Program-made: the position numbers and the translations under genes | Notes under the pieces: generated by a model | Databases searched by the model: none | Seen by the model: only the letters and a program-made list of their open reading frames with translations | Told to the model about the DNA's origin: nothing | IMG/VR virus record: IMGVR_UViG_2534681604_000006 | Span: 1-47,099 of that record | DNA from: a virus | Taxonomy: Duplodnaviria; Heunggongvirae; Uroviricota; Caudoviricetes | Length of the DNA: 47,099 nt | Direction: 5' to 3' (one strand) | Shown here: positions 19,054-43,712 of the stretch, one piece after another | How positions within the stretch are numbered: position 1 is the first letter of the stretch | Layout of the letters: the number at the start of each line of letters is the position of its first letter

Positions 19054-20115
19054 ATGTCACAGAACTGGATGAGACATTTCGAGCTGCAGCTTGTGGACGG
19101 GAACGGTCAGGGAATTGAGCTAAGTGATTTTAAAGTCACCTTTACGATCGACTGGTTCAACATCAGCAGCGCGTCCCGGGTAGGGACTATCAAAATTTAT
19201 AACCTCTCGGCAGATACTGTGAACCGAATCACCGGGCAGGAGTTTTCGAAAGTGCGTCTGATTGCCGGTTACGACGGTATCGCGCCGGAGGTGTCGGCAA
19301 GCGACGTCGGGACCGTGCGGGAAGTTGACGCGGCGGACGTGGGTCAGAGTGATGGCCGCAACTACGGACTGATTTTCAGCGGTGAAATTCGCTACTCGGT
19401 CACAGGAAAAGACAGTCCGGTTGATTCCTACGTCCTGATTCAGGCAGCAGATACTGATCTGGCTTTTGCCACCAGTATAACCTCACAGACGCTGGCTGCC
19501 GGTTACACGGTCGCTGATGTAAACCGTGCGCTGATGAAAGACTTCGAAGCCAAAGGCGCGACCGAAGGCCTGACGCCTGAAATGCCTGCTACTGTATTCC
19601 CCCGGGGGCGGGTACTCTTTGGCATGACGCGGCATCTAATGGATAACGTAGCCGGGCAATGTGGCGCAACATGGCAATTCGTGGACGGTCAGCGCCAGAT
19701 GGTGGCGAATAACGAATATGTTCATGAAGCGATTGTGCTCAACAGCGCTACCGGGCTTATTGGCATGCCGCAGCAGACTATCGGTAACGGCGTAAACGTC
19801 CGCGCGCTTATTAATCCGAACATCCGGGTTAACGGACTTATTCAGCTGGATCAGGCTTCCGTGTATCGTACCGCCTTGTCGAACAACGATATTGCGATGG
19901 CTGGTGGTCAGATCACCGACCAGAACACGGATGGAAATATCACGCTAAGCGGCACCACATCGCAGCCTGCCAGCATCGCAACGGATGGCGTTTATATTGT
20001 GCGCGGGATTATGTACACTGGCGACACAAGGGGCCAGGCGTGGTACATGGATATGATGTGCGAAGCGCGTGGCGCGGCGGATCTGTATACGCGATCGGCT
20101 TTGCAAAGGGGATGA
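19054..20115 (+). CDS. Baseplate hub-like protein
   Basis: 353 aa in the hub position. Confidence 0.55.
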   Translation: MSQNWMRHFELQLVDGNGQGIELSDFKVTFTIDWFNISSASRVGTIKIYNLSADTVNRITGQEFSKVRLIAGYDGIAPEVSASDVGTVREVDAADVGQSDGRNYGLIFSGEIRYSVTGKDSPVDSYVLIQAADTDLAFATSITSQTLAAGYTVADVNRALMKDFEAKGATEGLTPEMPATVFPRGRVLFGMTRHLMDNVAGQCGATWQFVDGQRQMVANNEYVHEAIVLNSATGLIGMPQQTIGNGVNVRALINPNIRVNGLIQLDQASVYRTALSNNDIAMAGGQITDQNTDGNITLSGTTSQPASIATDGVYIVRGIMYTGDTRGQAWYMDMMCEARGAADLYTRSALQRG

Positions 20116-20118
20116 GCA

Positions 20119-20460
20119 ATGAGGGGTATTATTTTTCTGTTAGCTGTCTTTTCTGCGTGCAGCGCGTGGGCGGATGGCTTCACGGTTAAATGCGGTGGCT
20201 ACACTATGGTTGCAAACCAGGGCGAGTTATCGACTATCAACGGTGAAAGAGTTACCTCTCAAAAAATCACCGAACTGGGTACCAATGGTTTGAAAGTAGA
20301 CATGGGGCTTATGCCTGCCAAAGACGGTAACAACTACGGCTTTGAATACATTCGTCGCCCTGGCACCGAAACGCGTTTCCTGAACGTCCAGCTTCTGCAG
20401 AACAGCATGGATGCACCGAAAATCATCGGATCTTTCCCGTGTAAAAAGGTTGATGGTTGA
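20119..20460 (+). CDS. Small secreted/periplasmic protein (moron in the tail operon)
   Basis: 113 aa with N-terminal signal peptide MRGIIFLLAVFSACSAWA; translationally coupled to the hub gene; followed by a hairpin. Confidence 0.6.
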   Translation: MRGIIFLLAVFSACSAWADGFTVKCGGYTMVANQGELSTINGERVTSQKITELGTNGLKVDMGLMPAKDGNNYGFEYIRRPGTETRFLNVQLLQNSMDAPKIIGSFPCKKVDG

Positions 20461-20465
20461 AGTCC

Positions 20466-20490
20466 CATCCTTTTTGCAAGGATGATTTTG
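20466..20490 (+). terminator. Hairpin/terminator after the secreted-protein gene
   Basis: CATCCTT tttgc AAGGATG perfect 7-bp inverted repeat followed by ATTTTG. Confidence 0.4.
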
Positions 20491-20521
20491 TGCGAAACGG
20501 CTCAACAGCACGAGCTTCGGA

Positions 20522-20551
20522 TTGACTAAACTGTATACGCGAACATAAAAT
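20522..20551 (+). promoter_or_regulatory. Candidate sigma70 promoter for the two-gene moron
   Basis: -35 TTGACT (20522-20527), 18-nt spacer, -10 TAAAAT (20546-20551). Confidence 0.35.
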
Positions 20552-20580
20552 TCAACCAAAAGATAAGTAGCGAGCGTACT

Positions 20581-21351
20581 GTGGCAAGACCAAAACTGAA
20601 AGCGGAAGAGCGTTTTGACCAGTTGGTTAAGATAATCAATAGTGGTCAACCTCTTGATATTTGGACCTTTCGAGAGGTGGTCTCGGAGTATGGCTCTAAG
20701 CGTACTCCGCCTGCTGACACGCTTGTAGCTTTGGCTCATATTGCTAAAGGTGATGTGAGTGTCGGGATTGAAATGCTTGAAGCTATCCTCCCACATGCTG
20801 ATGTTAACTTTGCGCGGATTTTTTGTAAGCTGCTTGAGCGTTTTTCTCTACTCGAAAAATCGGACTACTACATCTATTCTTTAGCTGATAAGTATCCAAC
20901 CAAGTGGTTTACTTATAGGGCTGGTGGCGTTGCGTATTTGGTAGGGAAACTATCAAAATGCGTAGAATATTTTGGACGTCATTGCAAAATGTTATCCCAA
21001 GAAGAACATAGGGATGACGCAGAAGCCTTCTTGCAGGAGGTAATTCACGATATGGATGAAGCATACAAAAAGTCAGGATGCTCTTCAGAACAATACATGC
21101 AAGTTGCTCTTGCTGTTCATAGAGTCATGGCTGAATTCCCTCCAACTGAATATCGTGCTGACATCAACGGTGCATCTGGTGGGACTTATCTGGTTGAGGT
21201 AGTTAATGCATCCCCTGAACAGGTGGTTGCAATGAATATGCGACTTGCAGATGAAATTTGTTCAATCGATTTACTTGATGATTGCAATCTTATTGCACGT
21301 TTTTCCGTTGAAAGAAATAGCTTGAAAGGGTGTAAATATGCCTATAACTAG
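20581..21351 (+). CDS. Hypothetical protein, moron gene A
   Basis: 256 aa from GTG at 20581; helical, no TM segment or recognisable catalytic motif; interrupts the baseplate operon. Confidence 0.55.
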   Translation: MARPKLKAEERFDQLVKIINSGQPLDIWTFREVVSEYGSKRTPPADTLVALAHIAKGDVSVGIEMLEAILPHADVNFARIFCKLLERFSLLEKSDYYIYSLADKYPTKWFTYRAGGVAYLVGKLSKCVEYFGRHCKMLSQEEHRDDAEAFLQEVIHDMDEAYKKSGCSSEQYMQVALAVHRVMAEFPPTEYRADINGASGGTYLVEVVNASPEQVVAMNMRLADEICSIDLLDDCNLIARFSVERNSLKGCKYAYN

Positions 21352-21733
21352 CTCTGAGTTTTTATCTTCAGCGGAGCGTTGCTTTGCGGAGGATTCTGAA
21401 GTTGGTTATCGTAATACTATTTCGCGGGCATATTATGCGCTTTACCATGAAATAAAAGAGAATCTGACCAGTCTTCCTGCTTATACGAAGGATCATCATT
21501 CCAGTCTTATCTCTTATCTTAAAAATAAGAGTGAAAACAAACTGGAGCCATATGATCCATTAAGCCTAAAATCCATGGCTTACAAACTTGAGCAACAGAG
21601 ACTGGCTCGAAATGAAGCAGATTATGACCTCACTAGCTGTGCAATAGATAAAGCAATGGCACAGCAATCTCTCTTAGAGGTTAAGACTATTTTTTCTCAG
21701 TGGGAAAAAATGAAGACTGATGAAGCTGTTTAA
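21338..21733 (+). CDS. Hypothetical small helical protein, moron gene B
   Basis: 131 aa; overlaps gene A by 14 nt; N-terminal SRAYYALYH; followed by a strong terminator. Confidence 0.55.
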   Translation: MPITSSEFLSSAERCFAEDSEVGYRNTISRAYYALYHEIKENLTSLPAYTKDHHSSLISYLKNKSENKLEPYDPLSLKSMAYKLEQQRLARNEADYDLTSCAIDKAMAQQSLLEVKTIFSQWEKMKTDEAV

Positions 21734-21753
21734 ACTCATTTAGTGAATTAACA

Positions 21754-21778
21754 AAACCCGCCATTCGGCGGGTTTTTT
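21754..21778 (+). terminator. Intrinsic terminator closing the two-gene moron
   Basis: CCCGCC attc GGCGGG hairpin followed by TTTTTT. Confidence 0.75.
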
Positions 21779-21797
21779 GCTTTCTGGAGCCTACCAA

Positions 21798-22550
21798 ATG
21801 GCAGTATCTGACCAGACCCGCAGCGGCGACCTTGCCGAAACATTCAAATCTGAACGGGAAACAACAAAGAATCAGATCCGAGTCGCCTTGCCTGGCATTA
21901 TTCAGTCATTCGATCCTGATGCGGTGACGGCGGTTGTGCAGCCTGCTATCCGTTCGGTTGAAAAGGATAATGACGGCAACCGCATTACCAAAAATTACCC
22001 ATTGCTGGTGGATGTTCCAGTGGTATTCCCACGTGGCGGAGGATGTACGCTAACGTTTCCGATTAAAGCCGGGGATGAGTGTCTTGTCGTTTTTGCCGAT
22101 CGTTGTATTGATTTCTGGTGGCAGAGCGGCGGAATACAGGAACCGGTCGATGACAGAATGCATGATTTATCGGATGCGTTTTGTATTGTAGGCCCCCAGT
22201 CGCAGGCGAGGAAGATTAGCGGTATTAATACCAGTGCCACACAGTTGCGTAGTGACGATGGCAGCACCTATTTTGAGCTTAATCCTGATACCAGGAAAAT
22301 TAAAATTGTCGCTCCGGGTGGTCTTGATGTGGTTGCCCCTCTGGCTGATTTTTCTGAGAAAGTAACCATTCATGGCCTGTTAACCTGGATGGGGGGCATG
22401 GTGGGGTCTGTTGTTTCTGGTGTGGCTTCAAAAATCACTGGTGTTGTTGAGTTTTTGGGTAGCGTGAAGGCTAACGGCAAGCCAATCGATAATACGCACA
22501 CTCATGGTGGTGTTCAGCGCGGTGGAAGCAGTACCGACGGGGTAAACTGA
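21798..22550 (+). CDS. Baseplate spike protein (gpV-like)
   Basis: ATG at 21798; C-terminal HTHGGVQRGGSSTDGV typical of spike proteins. Confidence 0.65.
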   Translation: MAVSDQTRSGDLAETFKSERETTKNQIRVALPGIIQSFDPDAVTAVVQPAIRSVEKDNDGNRITKNYPLLVDVPVVFPRGGGCTLTFPIKAGDECLVVFADRCIDFWWQSGGIQEPVDDRMHDLSDAFCIVGPQSQARKISGINTSATQLRSDDGSTYFELNPDTRKIKIVAPGGLDVVAPLADFSEKVTIHGLLTWMGGMVGSVVSGVASKITGVVEFLGSVKANGKPIDNTHTHGGVQRGGSSTDGVN

Positions 22551-24779: not shown

Positions 24780-25489
24780 TGGCGAAAAATGACTTTAAAG
24801 CGTTTGCAACGGATCGAAATGCCAATGTTATATCGCAGGAGGAATGGGAAGCGTTGCCCGCGCTTTTATCCGGATTTACAGCAGGGAAAGCCTCCAGTGC
24901 GCAAGTCAATAAGGTTATTCGGCAGGCCAGCTTTATTGCTGCAGCTCTGGCCCAGTTTGTAAGTGATAAAACGCAACGGGATGTGCTTGATAATGGTGAT
25001 CTGCCCGGTTTTGTTGAATTGCTGGGATCGGGGTTTGCTGTTGAATACCTGAGCCGCAAGAATCCGTTTGGTGATATCAAATCGGATGGCACGGTGAAAA
25101 CGGCTCTCGAAAACCTTGGTTTGGGAGAAGCGGCAAAACGGGATGTGGGCACAGGGGAAAATCAGATACCGGACATGGTTTCATTTAGTGGGGTGAGGGA
25201 TTATTACGGAAAACAACTTTTGCCAGGAGGGTTGATACTCCAGTGGCTGACGATTCCATCAAGTGCAGCAGCCAAAGCTGTAACACTGAATAATGGTAAT
25301 TATCAGCTGTCAGGTTATAAATGGCCCCAGTCATTTGGTGTCCTGTTTGCTGTGTTTGCCACAAAAGTTTCTGGCTCGACTAACGAAGCATACGCAATCT
25401 CAGTTAATCGTCACTCTACCGATGTAATTGTCACCTGGAATGCCCGTAAGGCTGATGATGTCCACATTTTAGGAATTGGGAAATTATGA
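24779..25489 (+). CDS. Tail fibre protein (constant N-terminus fused to the currently oriented variable C-terminus)
   Basis: ATG at 24779 overlapping the upstream stop; crossover repeat inside the gene at 25116-25141; a paralogous C-terminus is encoded on the opposite strand. Confidence 0.7.
25116..25141. repeat. Left inverted-repeat crossover site of the invertible tail-fibre segment
   Basis: TTGGTTTGGGAGAAGCGGCAAAACGG, perfect reverse complement of 26623-26648. Confidence 0.75.
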
Positions 25490-25905
25490 AAATGAAATGG
25501 TCCCCATCTGTTCAGGGATTTTTCTCTGAAAACAACAGTGATATTCCCGATGATGCTTTCGATATTGAAGATGCTCTTTATTATGAACTTATGAATGGTC
25601 AGAGTACTGGGAAAATTATTATCAATAGCCCGGATAACTACCCTGTACTTACTGAATATCCAGCGAAGACACAGGAACAGGAAATAGCTGAAGCGGAGGG
25701 AATGAAAAATATACTTATTGAACAAGCCAACGATTATATGAACAGTAAACAATGGCCTGGTAAAGCGGCTATTGGCCGGCTGAAAGGTGAGGAACTGGCG
25801 CAATATAATTTGTGGCTGGATTACCTGGACGCACTGGAACTGGTCGATACTTCCGGTGCGCCAGATATTGAATGGCCTACGCCGCCGGCAGTTCAGGCCA
25901 GCTAA
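25486..25905 (+). CDS. Tail fibre assembly protein
   Basis: 139 aa [17 protein letters not shown]...; follows the tail-fibre gene. Confidence 0.7.
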
Positions 25906-26272
25906 TCTCAGGAGCCGTCGAAGTGTCGACGGCTTTTACTTCTTTTTTGTAGTCCATCCAAGCAGATAGTTTTTCTTTATCTGTACTGCTGATATCACCA
26001 AGCATTAACTCCACTCGCCAGTCAGCTGTGACATTATCGGCATGAGCAAGTAACTGCATTCGCTGATTTTCCGCAAGTGCGACATAATCAATCGCCGGGG
26101 ATTTCAGTACCGGTAAACCATTTTCATCTGACGTAATTAATTTACCCCCTTCCTGCTGTCCGGCAATTAATTCATTGTATAAGTCTGTACTTATCTCAAC
26201 AATGTCAGCAGGCATGTCGCTGTTTATACCATCAAAGAAAAAACCATTAGTCGATTTTGAGAAATAAATCAT
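25877..26272 (-). CDS. Alternative tail fibre assembly protein (inverted orientation)
   Basis: Paralogue on the minus strand, MIYFSKSTNGFFFDGIN... from ATG at 26272. Confidence 0.6.
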   Translation of the reverse strand: MIYFSKSTNGFFFDGINSDMPADIVEISTDLYNELIAGQQEGGKLITSDENGLPVLKSPAIDYVALAENQRMQLLAHADNVTADWRVELMLGDISSTDKEKLSAWMDYKKEVKAVDTSTAPEISWPELPAA

Positions 26273-26280
26273 AGATATAC

Positions 26281-26622
26281 CTATACACCGATTGCTACCC
26301 AAAAACAGGACCTTTCATATTTGACAATTTCTCCATGAGATATACCGCCAACAATTATATAGAACTGTGATTTGCTGATATCAGAACAGTTCGCTATGCC
26401 CATTGCAGATATACCAGCCACCGACGTTGTATGTGGCACAGCCAACAGCGCAAGTGAACGATTTGGGAATGTTACCGGGTAAGTCACCGTATAGTTTGAT
26501 GCTCCACTGACAATACCCCACTGAATAATCAGACCTGAAGGGAGTTTTTGAAACCCCGTTGATGAAAGTGAACTGGCAAACGCCGCCATATCCGGAATTT
26601 GGTTTTGCTCGTTACCTACATT
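26281..26622 (-). CDS. Alternative tail-fibre C-terminal variable segment (no own start; expressed only after inversion)
   Basis: Encodes ...[20 protein letters not shown]..., paralogous to the plus-strand tail-fibre C-terminus and beginning at the inverted repeat. Confidence 0.6.
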   Translation of the reverse strand, partial: NVGNEQNQIPDMAAFASSLSSTGFQKLPSGLIIQWGIVSGASNYTVTYPVTFPNRSLALLAVPHTTSVAGISAMGIANCSDISKSQFYIIVGGISHGEIVKYERSCFWVAIGV

Positions 26623-26939: not shown

Positions 26940-28829
26940 TTAATCGTGTTTTGGCCATACTTTCAATGCAATTTCCCCCAACTTTTTACCCCGCTCCAGG
27001 ATTTCACCCTCATCCCATTTATCCTTAAGTATAAGTGGTATGTTCAGTCGTAGATTGGTGTGGACGATGAGAGCATCACGTTTTTTCAGAAATACAGCAT
27101 TCTGAACAGAACGGTTTACGCTAAGGTTAAGCAAAGTTAGATTTCCCAACGTAGCTATCGCTTGTTGCCGTTTCCTTACCAGTAGCTGCTCAGGGGTAAG
27201 ATCTGTTCCAGACAGAACAATTTGGTTCAATACCGTTGCATCTGAATTTGTCACCATATGACCATTTTCGAGAGGCCAACAGGAATACCAACTTTGAGGC
27301 ATAAGATGATCGATATCGAGATTGGAAAGATTTGGAACATCAGGCTTCTCTGTCTTCACTTGGTGACAAAGTTCTCTTTCAAGTTCCGTTAACATTGAGC
27401 GCATTTTCGGTGCGTCGAGCCTGCCAGGATAAAGTGGAGCATTGATGCAAGCATTGAGAAATTCTGAGTCACCAGGCCAACGTGAGGCTTCGCCATTTAA
27501 GCTATTGAGGATATTACGTAACTCAACACTGGAAATTTCCGTTTTAGACAAGTGCCGCAATACATTCATAAATACATTGTTGTAATTCTTTGGCGTCAGG
27601 CCACATACGGCTCTTCGTACTACGTAGGAGACAAGATCATTATACATGGCTGCTTTCTCATCATCGGCGATGTTAGCTATCGAAATGAACAAAGCAAGCG
27701 GATAAAGTGTCGTCACATCATAGGCTGCGATGCGATGTCCAAAGTGTGAGATGGGGGTTGTGCCAAAACCACCAACCAAATCTTTATATTGTGATGCATA
27801 TTGTTTGAGGCGCTTTACTTGCAGATCAGCTCGTTGTGAAGGCAAGTCCTTACTTACATAATCACGATACTCATTGTAAAGACGAGACAGATCAATTTCA
27901 CGTTGCCTTTCTGATTGCAATGTCGCATGCACTAGCCACTCCATGCGTGGTTTATTAATACGTCCACGGCGTTGCCTTTCCGACCAGTATGTATCTTCAA
28001 AGCTCTTCCACTCATTTTCATATAATTCAATAGCATTAATATTTTCATGCTCAGCGCACATAAAGATGTAGTTGCGAATAAGATCCGTGGCATGAAGTTC
28101 CGCCCCTCGGCCATTTAATGTTTCAAAAATTATTTGGGCATCATCTTCAGCTTCGAGAAATATGCTTACCAGTTTCAGATCCGTCAAGACAGCCTCAATT
28201 AGTGCTACAGCATTTTCATGTGGTGAGTACTTTTCTATTTTAATCCATTTTATAAAGGCTTCAGTAAAAAAACATAATGCCTCTAGTGACGGCGGGTGGT
28301 TGAAATGTTTACGTAACGTACCATGTTGCGTGAAGCTATCAGAAAATACATTACGGAGATCGTCAATGTTTTCAACATTAAAACTTTGAATAAAATGAGT
28401 TTGGTCTCGAAAAGTTGGCCACAGTTTGAAGCATTCTACCTTTTTATTTCGCATAGTTGCTTCGTTTGTATTTTTCAAGCAAGTCAATACTAACCCTTCC
28501 AAATCAGAAAGGCCTGTAGCACGCAATGATAATCGAATGGATGCCAGAATATATTGAAGAGTGGTTAAACGTTGCTGGCCGTCAATAATATGTATGGTAT
28601 CTACACCTAACAAGCTGTTTTTGAGTTGAGGTTCCAGCACCACCGCGCCAAGGAAATGGGGAGTTGGTTTTGTTCCCAAAAGTCGGCTATGTGCTTTTTC
28701 GAAGATATCCTCCAGCAAAGCTGACCATTGGTTTTGTTGCGTCCATACGTAGGCACGTTGATAGAATGGAACACGATATTGTCGTTGATTTTGGAAAAGT
28801 TGCTGGATGGTTAGCGTTTCGGATTTCAT
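26940..28829 (-). CDS. GmrSD-like type IV restriction endonuclease (DUF262 + DUF1524 domains)
   Basis: N-terminal DUF262 motifs (FYQRAYVW, IIDGQQRLTT) and C-terminal HNH-like DUF1524 (DIDHLMPQSW); AT-rich. Confidence 0.8.
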   Translation of the reverse strand: MKSETLTIQQLFQNQRQYRVPFYQRAYVWTQQNQWSALLEDIFEKAHSRLLGTKPTPHFLGAVVLEPQLKNSLLGVDTIHIIDGQQRLTTLQYILASIRLSLRATGLSDLEGLVLTCLKNTNEATMRNKKVECFKLWPTFRDQTHFIQSFNVENIDDLRNVFSDSFTQHGTLRKHFNHPPSLEALCFFTEAFIKWIKIEKYSPHENAVALIEAVLTDLKLVSIFLEAEDDAQIIFETLNGRGAELHATDLIRNYIFMCAEHENINAIELYENEWKSFEDTYWSERQRRGRINKPRMEWLVHATLQSERQREIDLSRLYNEYRDYVSKDLPSQRADLQVKRLKQYASQYKDLVGGFGTTPISHFGHRIAAYDVTTLYPLALFISIANIADDEKAAMYNDLVSYVVRRAVCGLTPKNYNNVFMNVLRHLSKTEISSVELRNILNSLNGEASRWPGDSEFLNACINAPLYPGRLDAPKMRSMLTELERELCHQVKTEKPDVPNLSNLDIDHLMPQSWYSCWPLENGHMVTNSDATVLNQIVLSGTDLTPEQLLVRKRQQAIATLGNLTLLNLSVNRSVQNAVFLKKRDALIVHTNLRLNIPLILKDKWDEGEILERGKKLGEIALKVWPKHD

Positions 28830-29548: not shown

Positions 29549-32500
29549 ATGGATGAAATTTCCAGATTTATTGGAAAGATTGAGGTGCTTCACAAGACAG
29601 GATGTGCAACTGAACATTCGTACAGACCTGCTTTTATTGACCTCATCGAAAGCTTTAATAATGACATAACGGTTTTAAACGAACCTAAGCGCATTGAATG
29701 TGGTGCCCCCGATTTCATTATCCAGCGTGGAAATATTGTCGTTGGTCATTTGGAGGCAAAGGATGTTGGCGTGGATATCCGAAATCTCACAGGGCCGAAC
29801 AAAAAGCAGCAGCAGCGTTATCTTGATGCCCTACCTAATCTCATCTACAGCAATGGCCTCGATTGGGATTTCTACCGTGATGGGCAACTACTGGAATCGG
29901 TTACTATTGGTTCCATGGGGCTAGGTATCAAGTCAGATGCAGGCCAGTTCGACAAGTTGAAATCATTACTGGATGATTTTATTAGCCAGACACCTATCAG
30001 CATTACTAGCCCTCAAGAGTTAGCCGTGCGCATGGCGGGTAAGGCCAAGCTTATCAAACCTGTGTTCTTTAACGCTTTGGATGCTGATCTGCGATCTGGA
30101 AATGATACTGAGCTAGTTTTACAGTACAAGACCTTCAGAGACAACCTTATACACGGTATTGACCCGGAAAGTTTCGCGGATATTTATGCAGAGACCATCT
30201 GCTACGGTATGTTCGCAGCTCGACTACATGACAATACGTTGGATACGTTCAGTCGTCATGAAGCGTTGGACAAGCTACCCAAAACCAACCCGTTCCTAAA
30301 AAATCTATTCAGTTATATAGCTGGAAGCGGGTTAGACGAACGTATTGTTTGGATCATCGACGATCTTGCCGATATTTTTCGGGCAACAGATGTTGCGGCC
30401 ATCATGGCCGGTTTCGGCAAGCTCACTGGCCGACAAGATCCTTTCCTACACTTCTATGAAACCTTCTTGGCCGCTTATGACCCAGACAAACGCAAATCTC
30501 GAGGTGTTTGGTACACTCCGGAACCAATAGTAAATTTCATTGTGCGAGCCGTAGATGAAGTCTTGCAAACCGAGTTTGGTCTTAAAGATGGGCTAGGCGA
30601 TACATCGAAGATAAAAATCCCATGGGACACTGGCCAGCGTAAATTGACCAAGTCTGGTAGACCTACGGCCGATGGAAAAAACTTTATCACCGAAAAAGAC
30701 GTTCACCGGGTTCAGATTCTCGATCCAGCTACCGGCACTGGCACTTTCCTGGCGGAGGTAATCAAGCAGATCGCCCAAAAGGTTAACGATGTAGCGCCTG
30801 GCATGTGGAGTGGCTATGTCGAAAAGGAGTTGATTCCACGCATCCACGGATTCGAAATTATGATGGCCTCCTATGCAATGTGCCACATGAAACTGGACAT
30901 GATACTCACCGAATTGGGTTACAGGCCAAGCAGCAATCCACCGCGCCAATCAATATACCTAACTAACTCACTGGAAGAAGGTGACCCACCTAACTATAGC
31001 TTGCCATTCGCTAGCTGGCTTGCCACCGAAGTGAAACTCGCCAATACCATCAAGCGTGATATGCCTATTATGTGCGTGATTGGCAATCCACCTTATTTGG
31101 GCGAAGGCGGCGTTTCAGAAGGGTGGATTGGTAGACTTATGGACGACTATAAAAAAGAACCCGGCGGTAAGGAGAGGCTTAGGGAACGCAATCCCAAATG
31201 GCTGAATGATCTATATGTGAAGTTCCTGCGTATCTCCTCGCACTGGGTTGAAAAGAACGGTGAGGGTGTCTTGGGATTCATTACCAACCACGGCTATCTG
31301 GATAATCCCACCTTCCGGGGCATGCGTTGGCACTTGCTTCATACTTTTGACAAGATTTGGATTCTGGATTTACATGGCAGTTCCAAAAAGAAGGAGAAAA
31401 CGCCGAACGGTTCCATGGATGTTAATGTCTTCGACATAATGCAGGGGGTGTCCATCATAATCGGCGTTAAGAAAAAGCATAGTGGTAATGGTCTGGCTGA
31501 AGTAATGCGAGGTGATTTGTGGGGCAGTAGGGCGGAAAAATACGAGGCTCTGAGAAATCTTAACTTGACAAACGAGCTTTTCAAAAAAATTGAAATAAGA
31601 CCGCCTCAATATCCCTTTGTTACACAGGACTGGACTGATTTTGAAAGTTATCAGTCCGGATTTCCTATTAATATTTTTATGCCGGTACATGGAAATGGGA
31701 TTGTCACAAAACGGGATAAATTGAATATTCACTTTACTCCTAATGATGTTAAGCAAGTCGTTGAAGATTTCCTGACGCTCAGTGAGTCTGAAGTCCGGAA
31801 TAAATATAAACTTCCAAATGATGTCAGAGACTGGCGATATGAATGGGCTAAACAGGACATCGAAAGCAGGGTGGGAAAAATTCCAGTTCAGAAAATTGGT
31901 TATAGGCTCTTCGATCGTCGTTTTATCTTTTATTCGGGGAAAGCAAGAGGACTTATTGGTTGGCCAGTGGCACATATCATGGAACATTACATTCGTGGAA
32001 AGAATATTGGGTTACTGACCACTAAAGCACATAGAGATGCTGATTTTGCTCATGTATTTATAACTGATCTACCAACGGAAGCCATTCATTTCTCAGCTAC
32101 TAGTGGCTCAAATGCGATGAACTTTCCCCTTTACCTCTATCCGAAAGACGATCTGACAAAGCCCCAAGTTAATTTCGAACCCAAGCTCTTCGCCCGCTTG
32201 CAAAGATTGGCTGCTCATTCTGATTACGGCATACCCAATGAAATCGTTGTCTTTGATTATATTTACGGTGTGCTTCATTGTCCGCTCTACCGCAAGGCTT
32301 ATGCGGAGTTTCTTAAAACTGACTTCCCGCGCATTCCTTGGCCAGCCAGCCCGGATGAGTTTTGGCATGTCTCAGTCAAGGGCGGCGAGTTGCGGCGCTT
32401 GCACCTAATGGAACCATCAGCCATAGGTGATACATCATTTAGCTTCATGGGCGATGGCAATAACGAGGTGGATACCATCGGCAAGGCATCTTTCCGAGAA

Positions 32501-32725
32501 GGCAAGGTTTTTATCAATAAAACCCAGTACTTCGTATACGTTCCGGAGAATGCTTGGAACTTTCGTATCGGTGGCTATCAGCCTGCTCAGAAATGGCTCA
32601 AGGATCGCCAAGGGTGTACTCTGTCATTTGAGGATATAAGGCACTACCAAAGAATTATTAAGGTGCTCATCGAAACTGATCGTATTATGGCAGATATTAC
32701 AATGAATCTGGGTATTAAAGTCTAA
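29549..32725 (+). CDS. Single-chain type IIL/IIG restriction-modification enzyme (MmeI-like)
   Basis: N-terminal PD-(D/E)xK motif (APDFII...GHLEAKD), AdoMet motifs GVWYTPEPIV and ILDPATGTGTF, catalytic NPPY (VIGNPPY), C-terminal target-recognition region. Confidence 0.75.
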   Translation: MDEISRFIGKIEVLHKTGCATEHSYRPAFIDLIESFNNDITVLNEPKRIECGAPDFIIQRGNIVVGHLEAKDVGVDIRNLTGPNKKQQQRYLDALPNLIYSNGLDWDFYRDGQLLESVTIGSMGLGIKSDAGQFDKLKSLLDDFISQTPISITSPQELAVRMAGKAKLIKPVFFNALDADLRSGNDTELVLQYKTFRDNLIHGIDPESFADIYAETICYGMFAARLHDNTLDTFSRHEALDKLPKTNPFLKNLFSYIAGSGLDERIVWIIDDLADIFRATDVAAIMAGFGKLTGRQDPFLHFYETFLAAYDPDKRKSRGVWYTPEPIVNFIVRAVDEVLQTEFGLKDGLGDTSKIKIPWDTGQRKLTKSGRPTADGKNFITEKDVHRVQILDPATGTGTFLAEVIKQIAQKVNDVAPGMWSGYVEKELIPRIHGFEIMMASYAMCHMKLDMILTELGYRPSSNPPRQSIYLTNSLEEGDPPNYSLPFASWLATEVKLANTIKRDMPIMCVIGNPPYLGEGGVSEGWIGRLMDDYKKEPGGKERLRERNPKWLNDLYVKFLRISSHWVEKNGEGVLGFITNHGYLDNPTFRGMRWHLLHTFDKIWILDLHGSSKKKEKTPNGSMDVNVFDIMQGVSIIIGVKKKHSGNGLAEVMRGDLWGSRAEKYEALRNLNLTNELFKKIEIRPPQYPFVTQDWTDFESYQSGFPINIFMPVHGNGIVTKRDKLNIHFTPNDVKQVVEDFLTLSESEVRNKYKLPNDVRDWRYEWAKQDIESRVGKIPVQKIGYRLFDRRFIFYSGKARGLIGWPVAHIMEHYIRGKNIGLLTTKAHRDADFAHVFITDLPTEAIHFSATSGSNAMNFPLYLYPKDDLTKPQVNFEPKLFARLQRLAAHSDYGIPNEIVVFDYIYGVLHCPLYRKAYAEFLKTDFPRIPWPASPDEFWHVSVKGGELRRLHLMEPSAIGDTSFSFMGDGNNEVDTIGKASFREGKVFINKTQYFVYVPENAWNFRIGGYQPAQKWLKDRQGCTLSFEDIRHYQRIIKVLIETDRIMADITMNLGIKV

Positions 32726-33886: not shown

Positions 33887-34177
33887 AAATCTCCAGAACG
33901 CAACAGGACGCATTCTAACGCTGTTTTCATTGCTTGGTATAGGGATGTATAGGTGATGTGTGTTTAATGCGTCTGTGAGCTTGTTTTGTGCCTTATTTTG
34001 CATTTTCATAATGCAGGAGAGAACACGGAAAACCTTAAAATTAATTATTGGGGTATTTAAGGCTATTTTCAGGTTATTTAAGGGTATTAAACTTGATTTA
34101 ATTGATTAAAATATAAACAGATAATTATGTATCTTATTGATTTATAAGGTTATTTTTAAATAAAGGTAAATAAAAAA

Positions 34178-34227
34178 TAAATAGCCATAAATAGCTATAA
34201 ATACGTCTAAATACATCTAAATACCTA
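34178..34227. repeat. Five tandem 10-bp iteron-like repeats
   Basis: AAATAGCCAT AAATAGCTAT AAATACGTCT AAATACATCT AAATACCTAT, one helical turn apart. Confidence 0.7.
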
Positions 34228-34703
34228 TATCCCTTCCTTATGGCTAGATTGCGAGAGGTGCTTAACGCGATTTTCAGCGCCCCCCGATCTGGAAAATCCA
34301 GAATCCCCAAATATCAGCAAGGAATTTTCTTGCGTAATCAACATCGTTTTTACCTATTAAATCATTACACAGAAAGCCTTTCTGTAATGTCTCTCACTAA
34401 ACTTTCACTAAACACGAGAATGATCGGTTTTATGTCGGATCAGATGCTAGAAACAGCACCACGTCTCACAAGGGCTGTAAGCGATGAAACCAGTGTTTAT
34501 GCGGGTACAGGTCAAAATATAGGCCAAAATCCATTTAACATAATAATCGTAATATGCACTAAGGAACACATAGAACGCCTTGAATTGATGTATCAGGGGA
34601 AAAGTGATGGATTTTTTACGTAGGAGCACGAAAGGGCTTCTATTGACTTTTGTATGTTATGAAATATAATTAAAGGTTTTTTTGTTTTTATCGTGTGATG
34701 TAG

Positions 34704-35150
34704 TGGATTACACAGGGGAATAGATTAAATGGTGTTCTGTTTATACAGGTTTATTTGTTAGATCAACAATTTGGCATTTCTAAACAGATGTTTGAACGTT
34801 GCCAAATGCCTTGACAACACAAGAAAAGGGCTTGCTATGCCACGCATTACACGAAATAAGGCTGTAAAAACAAAATAAATTTTAAAATTTGCACAAACGA
34901 GAGAACTCATTAAGAAACAAGCAGAACAATTTTTAGCCAACAATTTCTGATGGTGCTCTGTAAGCCGCATTACACAAGGCTTTGCGAAAGTGATGTAAAA
35001 GTGAAGAAAGTAAGAATTGCACTTTTAAGCTACTTTTCATTGAATTTTTTAGTATGGAATTACACAGGGAATAGAGAGCATTATTCTATGATTTACACAG
35101 GGAATATAGGGGGATTATGGCACACACATAGAAAGGCATTACACAGAGTG
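34704..35150. repeat. Dispersed ATTACACAGGG(AATA) direct repeats, at least six copies
   Basis: GGATTACACAGGGGAATAG, CATTACACGAAATAAGG, CATTACACAAGG, GGAATTACACAGGGAATAGAG, GATTTACACAGGGAATATAGG, GCATTACACAGAG. Confidence 0.5.
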
Positions 35151-35191
35151 CTATGTGACAAATGGATGTAACGAGAGGTTACATTCAGCTA

Positions 35192-35326
35192 CCCCCACAG
35201 AATTCTGTTAATCTTAACTTTTAAAGAGATTTTTACCCTAACAAAATTCTGTTACCCCACCCTAACAGAATTCTGTTAGACACCCCCACAGAAAACTGTT
35301 AGACACCCCCACAGAATTCTGTTACC
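35192..35326. repeat. Array of five direct repeats each containing the palindrome ACAGAATTCTGT
   Basis: Palindrome copies at 35197, 35241, 35265, 35288 and 35311, the last four at about 23-bp spacing, each flanked by CCC(C/T)...TTA(G)ACA. Confidence 0.7.
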
Positions 35327-36542
35327 TATTAGATCATTTATTAAATTACTTATTAAATTATAATATTATATATTTATTTATATGATCTTTTGCCTTCCGG
35401 CGTTAGCTTCACTCTCTGGCAAGCAGCCTTACTCCGCTACCTTTGGGCTTCGTGGCTGGCCCGTTCCGCTCACACCGAAAGCAAAGCGTTACTTTCTTCG
35501 TGTAACTTCGTTGGCGGTAACGCCCACGAAGAAATACTATTGCGCTGTGCGCAGTAAGAGTAATCACCTAACCAATCATACTGATTGCTTACGTGTTAAC
35601 TCTCTCTAACTCTTAATTACCCTCCTACATTTAATAACTCTGTTATTCTCTGTAGTTGTGTAATTACTCGAAGAGAGAGCGGCTAAAGCTCAATTACACT
35701 CTGCTTTCCTCGTGTAATTTCACTAAGCCTCAATACAATTTCACTTCCTACATTCTGTAGTCGTGTAATTGTTTTCGGTGGAAAAGCCAGAGGCGACACC
35801 GAAAGAGAATTCTGATCTTATTAATCTTATCTATCTTAGTTAATCTTCTTACTTATCTTACTTACTTTATCTACTTTATTATTAATAATAGCTTTATAAG
35901 CTCTGTGTAGCTCTCTGACGCAAGAAACAGCATTCAGGAAGGGAATCACCTTAGAAAAGTGTTCTTTGCGTCATAATGTGTTTTATGAAGGATTCAGAGG
36001 TGTTTCATAACAGGAGTGTATAGAGGATACTTTAGGTAATTAAAAATAAGGGGTCTAAATGCTTCTCTAACAGCATTAAGCAGGGTAGGGAATGGAAACG
36101 CATTGCCTACACATATAAGCTCACTACAGAGCTTTACAGAGCGTTTTATAAAGTGACTCTCTATCTTATATCTACCATCACCTTTTCATATACCTAACAA
36201 ATACAAAATAAGCCCCTTAAATAAGCCTCTGGCGAGCTAAACAACCTCTACATAAGAGAATGTATTGCTTTTATCAAAACTTCGTTAGAACGCGTTTTAG
36301 AGCGTTTTAGACAATAATGAAGAATAGCACTACACAGAAGAGCACGAATAGCTAAGAAAAAATGTAAGTGCATGAAAAAGATCAGTTTTTTTATGGAAAG
36401 GTATTGACAAATGTTTCTTTATATGTAATAATAGGTATTAGAGGGACAGAAAAACATTCTTCTCTAAATAATCAAAATCAATGCACTTTGAAGCCGTCAG
36501 GCTTGCAAGGTGTTTTTCTTTTAACTGAATAAGGAGTTTTTT

Positions 36543-36731
36543 ATGAAATGGTTTACCCCGGAGCACGTCATCTCGGCATTTAAAAAAGGTGAGCTTACAC
36601 GCCATCAAGTAGTAATGAATCGTAATATGGCAAGGAGTCGAGGTTATCCAGAGCGAGCAGCTTGCTTCAATGAAGCACTCAAGATTATTGATGAACTAAG
36701 AAAAAATGAAAAAGAATCTGAAACAGAGTAA
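36543..36731 (+). CDS. Hypothetical small protein, first gene of the island operon
   Basis: 62 aa; strong RBS AAGGAG 8 nt upstream. Confidence 0.55.
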   Translation: MKWFTPEHVISAFKKGELTRHQVVMNRNMARSRGYPERAACFNEALKIIDELRKNEKESETE

Positions 36732-36750
36732 AGAATAGAAGGAGAAAACT

Positions 36751-36918
36751 ATGAGCGAAACTAAGAAACCAATTCCGCGCACTTACCTACACGTTGACCC
36801 TGAAATCTTCAAGGTTTTATTTGCTGAAGCCAAGAAAAGGCAAATTATGGTCAGTGATTTGATGTTAGAAATCATTACTGAAGCAGCAGAGAACATCAAA
36901 CAAAAAAAGGGTAAGTGA
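36751..36918 (+). CDS. Ribbon-helix-helix-like small DNA-binding protein (55 aa)
   Basis: ATG at 36751 with RBS GAAGGAG; N-terminal beta-strand-like RTYLHVDPEIFKV followed by helices; not in the ORF track because it is under 60 aa. Confidence 0.5.
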   Translation: MSETKKPIPRTYLHVDPEIFKVLFAEAKKRQIMVSDLMLEIITEAAENIKQKKGK

Positions 36919-36969
36919 TCCTCATTCACTTTAGTAGCGCATTAAGCGTGATTTATAAGGAGATTTTTA

Positions 36970-37623
36970 ATGATTAATGAAGAACAATTTGTAAAAGTTC
37001 CTATGTGGATTCTAAAAATAAGCCAAGTAAACGGGCATAAATTTACAGATAGTGCTAAAAACCTTTACTGCTATCTGAAAGGGTTTGATCGTGCATTTCC
37101 CTCTTACGCTAAGATAGGCGATGTTTTTGGCATAACACCAAGAGCAGCAGAGGAAAGGGTTAAGAAATTGCTCGAAATGGGATTAATTATAAAAGATGCA
37201 CGACCAGGAAGTTCTAATGTCTATCAAGTGGTAGATATTCCACAAGAAGAAGCTAGACAAGAAGCCAAGACACAACAAGAAGCTACTGTTAAAGCTGTTC
37301 CTGATCAGCTTCCCCCTACGGAAGATAATAAACAGCCTTCTTTTGATGTTCTTGATGATTGGGATGCGCCTTTGCCGTGGGAGACGGAAGAAACACCTGT
37401 TTCATCAAATGAAAAGGTAGCTAATGATAATGAGGAGGATGTGTTAGAGAATTTTGCCTCTCTTATCATCCGGGAGAAACACAGAAGAACAGGAGGATCA
37501 TCATTTATAGACTTTGCAAATTCACTAGCTTATAGACACGGGCTAAAACGACCAAATGGTATTGAGGCATATTTTGCTAAGAAACATCCCAAAGTATATG
37601 AAGACTTTGATATTCCATTTTAA
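36970..37623 (+). CDS. HTH-domain protein, putative replication initiator/organiser
   Basis: 217 aa; N-terminal winged-HTH-like region (KNLYCYLKGFDRAFPSYAKIGDVFGITPRAAEERVKKLLEMGLI), acidic linker, basic C-terminus; RBS AAGGAG. Confidence 0.55.
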   Translation: MINEEQFVKVPMWILKISQVNGHKFTDSAKNLYCYLKGFDRAFPSYAKIGDVFGITPRAAEERVKKLLEMGLIIKDARPGSSNVYQVVDIPQEEARQEAKTQQEATVKAVPDQLPPTEDNKQPSFDVLDDWDAPLPWETEETPVSSNEKVANDNEEDVLENFASLIIREKHRRTGGSSFIDFANSLAYRHGLKRPNGIEAYFAKKHPKVYEDFDIPF

Positions 37624-37634
37624 TAAGGAGGGTT

Positions 37635-37913
37635 ATGATTCAATATTTAGTAAAAAATCAAGTAGACAGAATTCAGTGTAATGACACAGGAAAACGCATC
37701 TATGAAACACTTGCTTACCTCTATAAAGGAAAGCCAACACCGCTAAAATATAGCGATGTGTTACATCGAGCAGGGTGCTCTGAAGATGGTTTAAAATTCT
37801 GGCTTAGACAGCTATCAAATTTCGGTGTTATAGAGATTAAAGAATTATCTTTCTCTACATTCAATCTCAAAAGACTGGATAAAGAAATAGACTTCATCTA
37901 TTCCACTCTCTAA
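37635..37913 (+). CDS. Hypothetical protein
   Basis: 92 aa; RBS AAGGAGGG. Confidence 0.55.
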   Translation: MIQYLVKNQVDRIQCNDTGKRIYETLAYLYKGKPTPLKYSDVLHRAGCSEDGLKFWLRQLSNFGVIEIKELSFSTFNLKRLDKEIDFIYSTL

Positions 37914-38045
37914 AATCTCTCTATGTAATTAAAATATAAAAGGAAAACATTATTATGGTAATAGCTATGTGGTGGTTGTTGTTTTTTATGCTCGTAGAAA
38001 CATACTTCGGGGTGTTTTCCTTTAAAAGAAAAGGAAAAGTAAATA

Positions 38046-38456
38046 ATGGCAAAAAGAAAAAACAACGTTGTTAAGAAGATCGGTGATTCAGCTTCTCTTC
38101 TAAGTAAACCTAAATCTATTCTAAGACGCAAAGACTTTAAAGAGCTAGTTACGCTCACCAAGCAAAATAGCGCCCCTGGCGAATGGAAAACAGAGATTAT
38201 AGAACATTCTCCCTCTGTGCCTTGCGGAGATGAATTTAACGCCTTACAAGAAATCTTATCTTCAACACCTGGCGTATTCTGGAAACCTAGAAAAAGAAAA
38301 GAGTATATCGTTGATAGCTCTGATTTGCGCAAATACCAGATTTTAGGATTTGAAGATTATAATCACTACGTCGGTTATCTCGCCACCAATGGCCTAAATA
38401 ATTTAGTTCCTGAATTCCAAATTTTAGATAATGCTGATCACTATGGAGACTTTTAA
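38046..38456 (+). CDS. Hypothetical protein with basic N-terminus
   Basis: 136 aa; RBS present. Confidence 0.55.
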   Translation: MAKRKNNVVKKIGDSASLLSKPKSILRRKDFKELVTLTKQNSAPGEWKTEIIEHSPSVPCGDEFNALQEILSSTPGVFWKPRKRKEYIVDSSDLRKYQILGFEDYNHYVGYLATNGLNNLVPEFQILDNADHYGDF

Positions 38457-38457
38457 T

Positions 38458-38796
38458 ATGAACAAAAACACGTATGACACAATTTATTCACTAATTAATT
38501 ATTATGAGGATGATTACCTCCTGCCTTTAAACCGCGCTGAACTTGAAGCATACAAAGAAAACACGCCAGCGGCACTAAATGAGGCGTTTAAACACTGGGA
38601 TTTAGCTGTGAATGCCTTTGAGCACCTCTCTAAGCGTGTAGAGATGCTCTGTAAGCGTGAGAACGCATATCTAACAGCGGATCAGCTATTTGAGCTATCA
38701 AACTGGATAGAAGATATTGAATCGGACGTTCGCTATGTGGGAGATGGCCTTATTGAACTAGCTCAACGCTTAGGCGCTGCTATCACAGAAGAATAA
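38458..38796 (+). CDS. Hypothetical protein
   Basis: ATG at 38458 with GGAGA RBS, directly after the upstream stop; ORF track lists 38431 as an upstream alternative. Confidence 0.5.
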   Translation: MNKNTYDTIYSLINYYEDDYLLPLNRAELEAYKENTPAALNEAFKHWDLAVNAFEHLSKRVEMLCKRENAYLTADQLFELSNWIEDIESDVRYVGDGLIELAQRLGAAITEE

Positions 38797-39128
38797 AAAA
38801 AGCAACAAAAAAGTTGTAAAATATCTTGACATTTCATCTATTGTATGTTAATATAATTATATAGGGTGATTATTTTTCCTTTATTGGTTCGATATTAAAA
38901 ATTCTTCTTGTCGTTAAAGGGGAGTAAAATCTCCGCTCCCCGCTTCTCCTCCTTAAGTAAATACTGTGTCATTATTACCTCTTTTTTCCTTTGTTATGCA
39001 TACATCTTGGAGTGTGCATAACATAGGGTAATTACAAAGGCGGCTTTAAATGCTGCCTTTTATTTTGCCCGTTATGCAACTTAAAAGTTGTATTTCTTAC
39101 TTTAAACAAGGTAACAAGGTTTATATAA

Positions 39129-39341
39129 ATGTTGTTTTTAAACGATAAAGAGCAAATCATCAAGTATAAAGATGAAATGCTGAAAATTAATCCACAAATT
39201 ACCGAAATGGTAGCTAAATACGCTGGGTGTTCTGTCGAGGAAGTAGAACGATGTGTTGAAAAATATTTTTCTCCTTCTTCTCCGTCTACACCTTCCATTA
39301 ATGAATTAATCAAATTAAAAGCTAAGGAGATTACTAAATGA
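39129..39341 (+). CDS. Hypothetical small protein
   Basis: 70 aa; stop overlaps the next start. Confidence 0.45.
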   Translation: MLFLNDKEQIIKYKDEMLKINPQITEMVAKYAGCSVEEVERCVEKYFSPSSPSTPSINELIKLKAKEITK

Positions 39342-39700
39342 TTATTGATTTAGACACTCTGTTTCCAGTCCGAAAGACTTTCACAGATATTGTAAGTTAT
39401 TGTACTGATCCGTTTGCCTCTGTAGAAAGCAAGGTTTTTGCTTCTCTTCCTGCTGATGTTGAATGCGGCGACTTGATCACCAGCACTGGCGCTAAATATG
39501 TATCAGGAGATGATATCTATGTTGTTATGAGTGAATTTGTAACGGCTGGAGAAAACAAGCCTGTAGATGTTTTACGTAGCAATGCTGGCCTTGTATGCAT
39601 TAAAGCTGATGCGCTGAATGCTGTAAGTGAAGCAGCAAAAACAGCCTTAATTAAAAAAGGCTTCCAGCTTGAAGGCTTCCACTCTGTTTTCACTTCTTAA
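39338..39700 (+). CDS. Hypothetical protein
   Basis: 120 aa; RBS AAGGAG. Confidence 0.55.
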   Translation: MIIDLDTLFPVRKTFTDIVSYCTDPFASVESKVFASLPADVECGDLITSTGAKYVSGDDIYVVMSEFVTAGENKPVDVLRSNAGLVCIKADALNAVSEAAKTALIKKGFQLEGFHSVFTS

Positions 39701-39718
39701 TAAAAGGAATAATAATAA

Positions 39719-40747: not shown

Positions 40748-40766
40748 TATTTTAACGTGTAATAGA

Positions 40767-40798
40767 GGCGTGGCGTGTATTCACGCTTCGCCTTTTTT
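40767..40798 (+). terminator. Intrinsic terminator after the 342-aa gene
   Basis: Nested GC stems GGCG..GCGTG tatt CACGC..CGCC followed by TTTTTT. Confidence 0.65.
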
Positions 40799-40833
40799 AT
40801 TTATTTTTTTAAATTTTGAGAGGTGATTAAAAT

Positions 40834-41037
40834 ATGGAAGTGATTTTGAAATCAAAAAATGGTGTACACGTACATTTAGATGCTAATGATTCTAGAGGCT
40901 TGTTAAATCTGAAATATCTATGTTCTCTTTTAGATGTTCCCTATGAAGGCGTAAAAGCCCGTATGTTCAGATTAAACGAGAGTATTGATCAAGCTCTGCA
41001 CCATTTCTTAAGTAAAGAAGGTGATAAAAATGATTAA
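40834..41037 (+). CDS. Hypothetical small protein
   Basis: 67 aa; RBS GAGGTGA. Confidence 0.5.
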   Translation: MEVILKSKNGVHVHLDANDSRGLLNLKYLCSLLDVPYEGVKARMFRLNESIDQALHHFLSKEGDKND

Positions 41038-41051
41038 TAAGGGGATTTTAA

Positions 41052-42884: not shown

Positions 42885-42917
42885 TTCCCGCCATAACATT
42901 ACAAGGAAATTATTATT

Positions 42918-43631: not shown

Positions 43632-43673
43632 CCGTAAACGCCTCTAAAACGCTCTGTAACGATGTAATTGTAA

Positions 43674-43704
43674 AAGAGGCTACCAATCTATGCTGAAGCC
43701 TCTT
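43674..43704. terminator. Hairpin between the convergent operon and the integrase gene
   Basis: AAGAGGCT (43674-43681) / AGCCTCTT (43697-43704) 8-bp stem with a 15-nt loop. Confidence 0.45.
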
Positions 43705-43712
43705 TATTGCGT

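Follow-up and report, generated by a model that had tools for sequence, protein, structure and literature searches.

Two genes lodged within the baseplate operon of a prophage pose a question: do they help to build the virion, or do they travel with the phage as cargo and, if so, to what end? The case considered here comes from a record of the IMG/VR collection (IMGVR_UViG_2534681604_000006; Caudoviricetes), whose 47,099 nucleotides (nt) were analysed as a whole and are referred to below as the window. The window is an Escherichia coli prophage of the SEN34-like (Brunovirus-like) myovirus type, in which two overlapping open reading frames (ORFs), ORF-A (256 amino acids, aa) and ORF-B (131 aa), lie between the genes for the baseplate hub and the baseplate spike. 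Seven complete E. coli genomes, including that of enteropathogenic E. coli (EPEC) O127:H6 E2348/69, carry matching cassettes on the chromosome at 99.8–99.9% identity. On balance, we think it probable that the pair is a toxin/antitoxin-like or abortive-infection module, in which ORF-B would be a ribonuclease (RNase) effector and ORF-A its regulator or sensor. Two sets of observations lead to this reading: Firstly, a small and strongly constrained putative effector of the HEPN fold is translationally coupled to a hypervariable repeat partner that bears no catalytic signature, and the two are inherited together as one unit. Secondly, the hotspot that holds them also holds a YafO toxin pair, the genes occur on a small plasmid, and deep allelic replacement is seen within identical phage backbones.

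A cargo slot between hub and spike

The possibility that ORF-A and ORF-B are tail components conserved in all related phages is contradicted by a survey of 5426 complete E. coli genomes. The hub-to-spike backbone was found in 353 of them, 10 of which carry the cassette allele of the window; ORF-A and ORF-B are absent from approximately 85% of the same-backbone prophages, where unrelated small genes are found instead. The content of the slot therefore varies strongly among related prophages, and its borders are sharp. When the window was compared by blastn with eight phages or prophages holding other cargos, homology stopped on the left at 20447–20462, the stop codon of a 113-aa gene, and restarted on the right at 21746–21755, the first base of a terminator stem, in all but one of the compared loci (in Yersinia phage YP3 it restarts only at the start of the spike gene). 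Both the 113-aa gene and the terminator are thus backbone, and the exchangeable unit is what lies between them; the terminator stem is conserved in loci with other cargos and its loop varies (ATTC, AAGT, ACCC). The cassette had been described as more AT-rich than the flanking tail genes, and this is borne out by a GC content of 0.41–0.44 over 20501–22000, compared with 0.53–0.54 in both flanks. Presence in some and absence from other close phages, conserved flanks and sharp breakpoints are together the marks of a moron or cargo hotspot. That the cassette is accessory cargo, not a tail part, is well supported, both by the rarity of the allele and unrelated genes in the same slot and by the occurrence of the pair at non-tail sites, on a plasmid and in a chromosome, as described below.

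The initial annotation took hub and spike genes to be normally contiguous, which proved incorrect: in nearly all SEN34-like loci the 113-aa gene follows the hub gene whatever the cargo, and the slot behind it is nearly always filled. The exception is one Salmonella lineage, in which an unrelated 153-aa signal-peptide ORF (L009:5366-5827) replaces the 113-aa gene. The other cargos, seen in the remaining E. coli genomes and in cultured relatives, include a DUF4282 membrane protein of 79 aa, a DUF2335 protein of 190 aa, another protein of 190 aa with a YafO-family toxin, a 170-aa or 138-aa protein without known function, and further two-gene cassettes of similar size; searches of these alternatives against NCBIfam, Pfam and PADLOC identified only YafO.

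Two of these cargos merit separate description. In E. coli CUVET20-1667 (L076:1576-2566) the YafO-family toxin (PF13957, E = 3.5e-17) is preceded by the 190-aa protein, which has no known function and stands in place of the usual small YafN antitoxin, so that here too the slot holds a toxin with an unusually large upstream partner. In phage vB_EcoM-689R2 (L002:1951-2463) the stretch IRNNLFHGGK of the 170-aa cargo fits R-x4-H to the letter, as the canonical HEPN motif does. The protein was considered as a second HEPN and set aside as an unverified pattern, since searches of Pfam, PADLOC, NCBIfam and PDB sequences gave no match.

Transcription signals around the cassette

How far is the cassette a transcription unit in its own right? 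It had been credited with an upstream hairpin, a promoter and a strong intrinsic terminator of its own, and this picture stands in part. The strength of the terminator is real: it has a 10-bp stem with six GC pairs and a T-run, and folds at -18 kcal/mol (z = -3.8), with none of 200 shuffles as good. Ownership is another matter, since the stem belongs to the backbone and is common to other cargos; every Rfam match there was below threshold, a generic leader or terminator look-alike. The ribosome-binding site of the spike gene lies within approximately 10 nt 3' of the terminator, so late transcription presumably reads through it. The upstream hairpin is present, but folds at chance level (-7.8 kcal/mol, z = -0.5, 51 of 200 shuffles as good) and is not kept in an 88%-identical Salmonella allele. 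The candidate promoter exists as described; it is identical in that Salmonella allele and partly kept in Yersinia, whereas other alleles have none or one weak promoter-like site each, and the number of such sites in the region (5, against 3.9 +/- 2.2 in shuffles) is not above chance. A sigma-70 promoter at this position is a plausible candidate on its sequence. Of a self-contained unit there remains, then, a promoter-like site kept only among close alleles.

ORF-B is an AF0298-like HEPN protein

The two overlapping genes and their 14-nt overlap are confirmed by the ORFs and by the RefSeq coding sequences of E2348/69, and an overlap of this kind implies translational coupling. The product of the second gene has the alpha-helical bundle fold of HEPN proteins. 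Its family profile aligns nearly full-length to PDB entry 2hsb (AF0298, UPF0332; E = 0.023) and also to 9xbd and 9xbc, chains named 'HEPN domain-containing protein'; the Pfam HEPN model PF05168 is matched by five of ten close homologs (best E = 2e-6), and several homologs from the wider family carry the name HEPN or UPF0332 in their source annotation. Among 84 diverse, non-identical family members there is no variation at E21, R25, R30, Y32, Y33, H54, R91, D95 or Y96, and H37 is shared by 83.

The segments SRAYYALYH and LARNEADYD, which had earlier suggested a loose resemblance to HEPN domains, are both present and fall within these invariant motifs, and the resemblance can now be made precise. 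The canonical motif position is occupied by R91-N-E-A-D95-Y96, and all 84 members have Tyr where His would stand. The remark that a canonical Rx4-6H is missing was therefore right in substance, although SRAYYALYH literally fits R-x6-H on helix 2; this R30-x6-H37 was rejected as a catalytic motif because of that helix-2 location and because its counterpart in 2hsb and 9xbd is the structural sRAYYAmfH motif. Loss of the Rx4-6H His is also a property of AF0298-like HEPN-T proteins and of AbiV, for which an alternative RNase site has been predicted, made up of the motif Arg and another conserved His that lies in the helix 2–3 insert (Anantharaman et al. 2013, PMC3710099). ORF-B has the pattern of the AF0298-like group: R91 is kept, the His is lost, and H54 lies N-terminal to the motif within the helix 2–3 insert, at the start of the helix that follows a loop at 43–52 in the AlphaFold2 model. 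Judged by these sequence features, the loose HEPN resemblance noted earlier proves correct and ORF-B can be placed as an AF0298-like HEPN-T (UPF0332) protein; it is probably an RNA-cutting effector with the predicted alternative active site.

Two further observations concern relatives of ORF-B. The chains 9xbd and 9xbc (aligned to ORF-B 27–128) differ by Tyr or Phe in RNRSD[Y/F]DL, at the position equivalent to Tyr96, and their depositors appear to have targeted this tyrosine. In Klebsiella phage ST405-OXA48phi1.3 (MK416008; L083:3490-3900) GenBank splits the ORF-B homolog into ORFs of 43 aa and 71 aa; a pseudogene was considered and rejected, since translation of the frame gives an intact 130-aa HEPN ORF and the split is a mis-annotation.

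ORF-A, a repeat protein without conserved residues

The model of ORF-A comprises an N-terminal helical array resembling tetratricopeptide repeats (TPR) over approximately residues 8–136, further helices to residue 185 and a C-terminal beta-beta-alpha-beta domain at 190–243. The array consists of helix-turn-helix repeats with TPR geometry, and the TPR models of Pfam match a distant plasmid-encoded homolog, which RefSeq likewise calls a TPR protein. An exhaustive profile search of 1.84 billion representative proteins returned only 62 ORF-A clusters, nearly all of about 255 aa and matched over their full length, and a profile scan of genome contigs with a broad ORF-A alignment found a single locus. 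ORF-A itself has no match in Pfam, NCBIfam or PADLOC, and its sole family match is phrog_17809, of unknown function; single-sequence searches of the PDB gave only noise, and its distant homologs have no meaningful PADLOC match. In an alignment of 48 diverse members there is no invariant or nearly invariant column.

A GASGG loop in ORF-A was considered as a nucleotidyltransferase-like motif and rejected, as it is not conserved beyond close relatives; nor was any nucleotidyltransferase found in ORF-A by Pfam, NCBIfam or PADLOC. ORF-A is predicted to be a non-enzymatic partner of ORF-B (a regulator, antitoxin or sensor), and its TPR array without conserved residues looks like a variable recognition surface.

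The pair is inherited as a unit

Are the two proteins partners, or neighbours by accident? The survey covered approximately 70 loci on homolog-encoding contigs, viral contigs, plasmids, cultured phages and E. coli genomes. At nearly every one of these loci the B-family gene has an A-family gene immediately 5' of it, some of the A partners being seen only by profile-profile comparison (hhalign probability 97.3%, E = 2.4e-11, 214 columns). At one exceptional locus (L019) the ORF upstream of B, of 196 aa, is not A-like. Yersinia phage YP3 (L003:2127-2927) has an orphan A-family gene without B, encoding 266 aa (hidden Markov model, HMM, E = 1.4e-12), which sits in the slot with only 124 nt left to the spike gene. 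No B without an upstream partner gene was found among the loci examined. Adjacent, co-oriented and co-inherited genes with the putative regulator upstream are the arrangement of a generic type II-like toxin-antitoxin pair.

The pair is also widely travelled. SEN34-like myoviruses of Escherichia, Salmonella, Yersinia, Serratia, Citrobacter and Rosenbergiella share the order hub, 113-aa ORF, A, B, spike. The pair lies between gpS and gpV in a P2-like Aeromonas prophage, between gpK and gpI-gpJ in lambda-like siphoviruses, between the tape measure and the J-like protein in another siphovirus, and between the tape measure and the baseplate hub in the Mu-like Pseudomonas phage PG1. Outside tail modules it is found upstream of terminase, after DUF968 or between lambda-P-like replication genes and terminase in various phages, and between ogr-like and gpA genes in a Vibrio P2-like phage. 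Beyond phages it adjoins chromate-resistance genes on a 10-kb MOBQ plasmid of Acinetobacter schindleri, and on a metagenomic contig it stands in an ordinary non-phage chromosomal neighbourhood. A and B thus form an ancient, mobile unit. Its presence in the tail-tip or baseplate clusters of five unrelated tail lineages (SEN34-like, P2-like, lambda-like, Mu-like PG1 and the other siphovirus) may reflect only where cargo is tolerated, or it may reflect linkage to, or co-expression with, the carrier's own tail proteins.

Alleles turn over within constant backbones

Compared with the window, the prophage of E. coli LR-46 has a hub of 100% and a spike of 98% identity, but an A of 23% and a B of 29%; for OkiPb01680 the corresponding values are 99% and 94%, but 22% and 25%. 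HMM searches place the cargos of both in the A and B families (E = 1e-33 and 5e-21 for A, 7e-12 and 3e-7 for B). The LR-46-type allele occurs in 33 and the OkiPb01680-type in 12 complete E. coli genomes. The reverse is seen as well, in viral contigs whose A and B are 99–100% identical to those of the window and whose spike is only 65% identical. Across 14 loci, the identities of A and B to the window track one another (r = 0.97), whilst neither follows that of hub or spike (r = 0.03–0.27). At all 14 loci A has diverged further than B. As every identity was taken against one reference, these values are descriptive and lack phylogenetic independence. Rapid allele turnover of this kind is typical of conflict systems.

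What the pair may do

From domain content, gene order, allelic turnover and the precedent of the prophage HEPN abortive-infection proteins HepS and Tha, we infer that the pair may act in phage defence, in superinfection exclusion or as a toxin. The cassette would be a mobile two-gene conflict module in a hypervariable slot of a SEN34-like prophage. Expressed from the lysogen, ORF-A and ORF-B would be produced together, and ORF-A would bind ORF-B and keep it silent. Attack by another phage would break this truce, either through a phage protein that binds the TPR surface or through loss of ORF-A upon shut-down of host expression. Freed ORF-B would then cleave RNA by means of R91, at the motif position, and H54, in the helix 2–3 insert, with D95, Y96, E21 and R25 nearby; this toxicity would arrest the cell in the manner of abortive infection or of a toxin-antitoxin system. 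On this proposal, alleles that have diverged deeply within identical backbones would stand for different trigger or neutralisation specificities.

Several points weigh against it. The cassette stands inside a late operon and may be expressed mainly in lytic growth, and its promoter is a candidate site in a region where such sites are no commoner than by chance. PADLOC-DB v2 (2023) gave no match for A and only a weak HEPN_IX match for B (E = 0.009, residues 10–72); the ORF-B of the window does not itself match the Pfam HEPN model PF05168 at E <= 1, and Foldseek returned no significant match. At the junction of helices 3 and 4 there is no canonical Rx4-6H and the catalytic His is absent, so that RNase activity rests on a published prediction. 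At 256 aa, moreover, ORF-A is large for an antitoxin.

The same facts can be read as a purely selfish addiction module, in which post-segregational killing stabilises the carrier replicon and phage defence plays no part. Gene order and overlap fit an antitoxin followed by its toxin, the pair is found on a mobilizable plasmid of 10 kb, a YafO-toxin pair is among the cargos of the same slot, and an orphan A is tolerated in YP3. Addiction alone would account poorly, however, for alleles of 22–29% identity within backbones of 94–100% identity and for a TPR array devoid of conserved residues, and we consider it unlikely as the whole explanation. The two readings are not fully separate, since many toxin-antitoxin systems have a defence role as well.

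A more specific form of abortive infection would have the TPR surface of ORF-A recognise baseplate or tail-tip proteins of an invader. Precedents exist in HepS, from the Gifsy-1 prophage (PMC13043305), and Tha, from a Staphylococcus aureus prophage (PMC11087260), HEPN effectors that stay silent until a phage tail protein appears. Placement in a tail cluster would keep such a sensor linked to, or co-expressed with, the carrier's own non-triggering tail allele. We give this form a low probability. Were it true, linkage would solve the problem of self-immunity, and the pair would provide both the first His-less AF0298-type HEPN effector with demonstrated activity and a new class of HEPN regulator other than minimal nucleotidyltransferases (MNT).

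Alternatively, the genes might serve the carrier in its own lytic cycle, transcribed by read-through from the late tail operon, as a host-takeover RNase, in counter-defence or as a weapon against co-infecting phages or satellites while particles are being made. The cassette lies inside the late structural operon and on the same strand, the pair recurs in the tail-tip or baseplate modules of five tail lineages, and there is no room for a separate spike promoter 3' of the terminator, so late transcription must cross the cassette. Set against this are the copies at non-tail sites, on the plasmid and in the chromosome, where late phage expression cannot apply, the candidate sigma-70 promoter upstream, and the majority of same-backbone phages, which do without the pair; we give this role a low probability.

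ORF-B could also be a non-catalytic, ligand-binding HEPN protein, like the HEPN domains of sacsin or kanamycin nucleotidyltransferase, and the pair a regulatory or chaperone complex. Such a reading seems very unlikely given ten invariant or nearly invariant charged or aromatic residues in 84 proteins, which argue for chemistry or specific ligand binding, a residue pattern that is the one predicted as an alternative nuclease site (PMC3710099), and the turnover of alleles. That A and B are structural or assembly components of the tail, for which only their position between hub and spike genes speaks, is effectively refuted by their absence from most same-backbone prophages, by their occurrence outside tail operons and outside phages, and by A and B identities that are uncorrelated with those of hub or spike.

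Relation to known systems

The conflict-module reading places the pair close to several described systems without equating it to any of them. AF0298 and its UPF0332 HEPN-T relatives (PDB 2hsb; PF05168) stand alone or are associated with or fused to minimal nucleotidyltransferases (PMC3710099), whereas the partner here is a TPR protein; their activity is likewise only predicted. In type VII HepT/MntA (HEPN-MNT) systems the partner is again a nucleotidyltransferase and the HEPN protein is canonical, whereas ORF-A has a TPR fold and ORF-B no Rx4H. Since ORF-A has no nucleotidyltransferase, it cannot AMPylate ORF-B, even though an invariant Tyr96 sits in the motif. HepS and Tha resemble ORF-B as prophage-borne HEPN effectors and raise the same problem of self-triggering; HepS, however, works as a single protein and carries the canonical motif as R100-H105, a small antisense-encoded inhibitor controls Tha, and both have neither a TPR partner nor a place in a tail-operon slot. 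AbiV of Lactococcus is a single gene from another phylum, and its structural match to ORF-B is much weaker than that of 2hsb. RnlA/RnlB and LsoA/LsoB combine a HEPN toxin with an unrelated protein antitoxin; the toxins have several domains, canonical motifs and a much greater size than ORF-B, and the antitoxins are unrelated to ORF-A. As for the slot, the hotspots of P2 and P4 (Rousset et al. 2022, PMC9122126) and classical morons likewise place varied cargo of deviant base composition between conserved genes of near-identical phages. The present hotspot differs in its SEN34-like lineage, in lying inside a baseplate operon, and in a right border formed by a conserved terminator common to all cargos.

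The initial annotation proposed an undescribed module, and within the scope of our searches this holds: ORF-A has no model in PADLOC, NCBIfam or Pfam, and no paper found names either protein. The pair was not found in the searchable literature under UPF0332 with HEPN, either RefSeq accession or diagnostic peptides, nor in the DefensePredictor supplements, Vassallo 2022, Rousset 2022 or the literature on SEN34 and Brunovirus. We class the pair with HEPN conflict modules, as one whose partner protein is of a new class and which occupies a hotspot delineated here for the first time. If this proposal is true, it adds to HEPN conflict systems an architecture in which a His-less AF0298-type effector is placed under a TPR protein instead of a nucleotidyltransferase, and offers a first functional entry to a HEPN clade for which, since 2013, there has been only a predicted activity. 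The baseplate operon of a common enterobacterial prophage group gains a previously undescribed cargo hotspot that holds several other uncharacterised cassettes, and three allele types of 22–29% identity in near-identical backbones amount to a natural experiment for specificity determinants. The host is closely related to E2348/69, the prototype EPEC strain and itself a carrier of the cassette, so that any part played by the prophage in phage resistance is directly testable.

Features of the cassette and its surroundings

Table 1. Cassette and neighbouring features in the window, with supporting matches
Feature	Position	Strand	Evidence or remark
Baseplate hub	19054-20115		phrog_196, E = 1e-88
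113-aa signal-peptide ORF	20119-20460	+	phrog_3443, E = 9.5e-48; conserved backbone, outside the cassette
Exchangeable cargo cassette (intergenic leader, ORF-A, ORF-B)	~20461-21752	+	blastn breakpoints, GC content
Weak hairpin after the 113-aa gene, probably not meaningful	20466-20484	+	7-bp stem
Candidate sigma-70 promoter, TTGACT-18 nt-TAAAAT	20522-20551	+	10/12
ORF-A, 256 aa, GTG start	20581-21351	+	Same coding sequence in RefSeq E2348/69
ORF-B, 131 aa, HEPN	21338-21733	+	Same coding sequence in RefSeq E2348/69
Strong intrinsic terminator hairpin	21753-21776	+	Right edge of the slot, directly 5' of the spike ribosome-binding site
Baseplate spike gene, backbone	21798-22550	+	PF18352 N-terminal domain, E = 1.4e-44, and Apex motif; ATG at 21798 as in RefSeq E2348/69

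Other observations on the prophage

Next to the slot, the 113-aa ORF has features of its own. Its signal peptide has a lipobox-like FSAC (MRGIIFLLAVFSAC...), and the gene evolves fast, with 28–73% identity where the hub is 46–97% identical. Its position may be a second, independent variable locus, encoding for example an exclusion lipoprotein.

Beyond the tail-fibre genes lie two restriction-type genes: a GmrSD type IV restriction enzyme at 26940-28829 (-), with matches to PF03235 (E = 8e-34) and PF07510 (E = 1e-18), and a 1058-aa protein at 29549-32725 (+) with N6_Mtase, Eco57I and Type_ISP_C domains, which resembles a type IIG or ISP-like restriction-modification enzyme. Defence-type cargo is thus found in this part of the prophage as well; in E2348/69 the position is taken by intS. 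Further along, approximately 34000–45100, come a low-GC stretch (0.33–0.40) and, after it, genes for a capsid-E-like protein (39719-40747), a Dit-like tail protein (42918-43631) and a second tyrosine integrase (43713-45047, -); the whole looks like a separate small integrated element, satellite-like or a prophage remnant, adjoining the main prophage.

Finally, two convergently oriented genes of the tail-fibre-assembly type lie at 25486-25905 (+) and 25877-26302 (-), of which the first matches Caudo_TAP, and the N-termini of their products look similar. In related Salmonella loci, oppositely oriented Caudo_TAP genes adjoin a resolvase/invertase gene, and the facing arrangement in the window suggests an invertible host-range segment.

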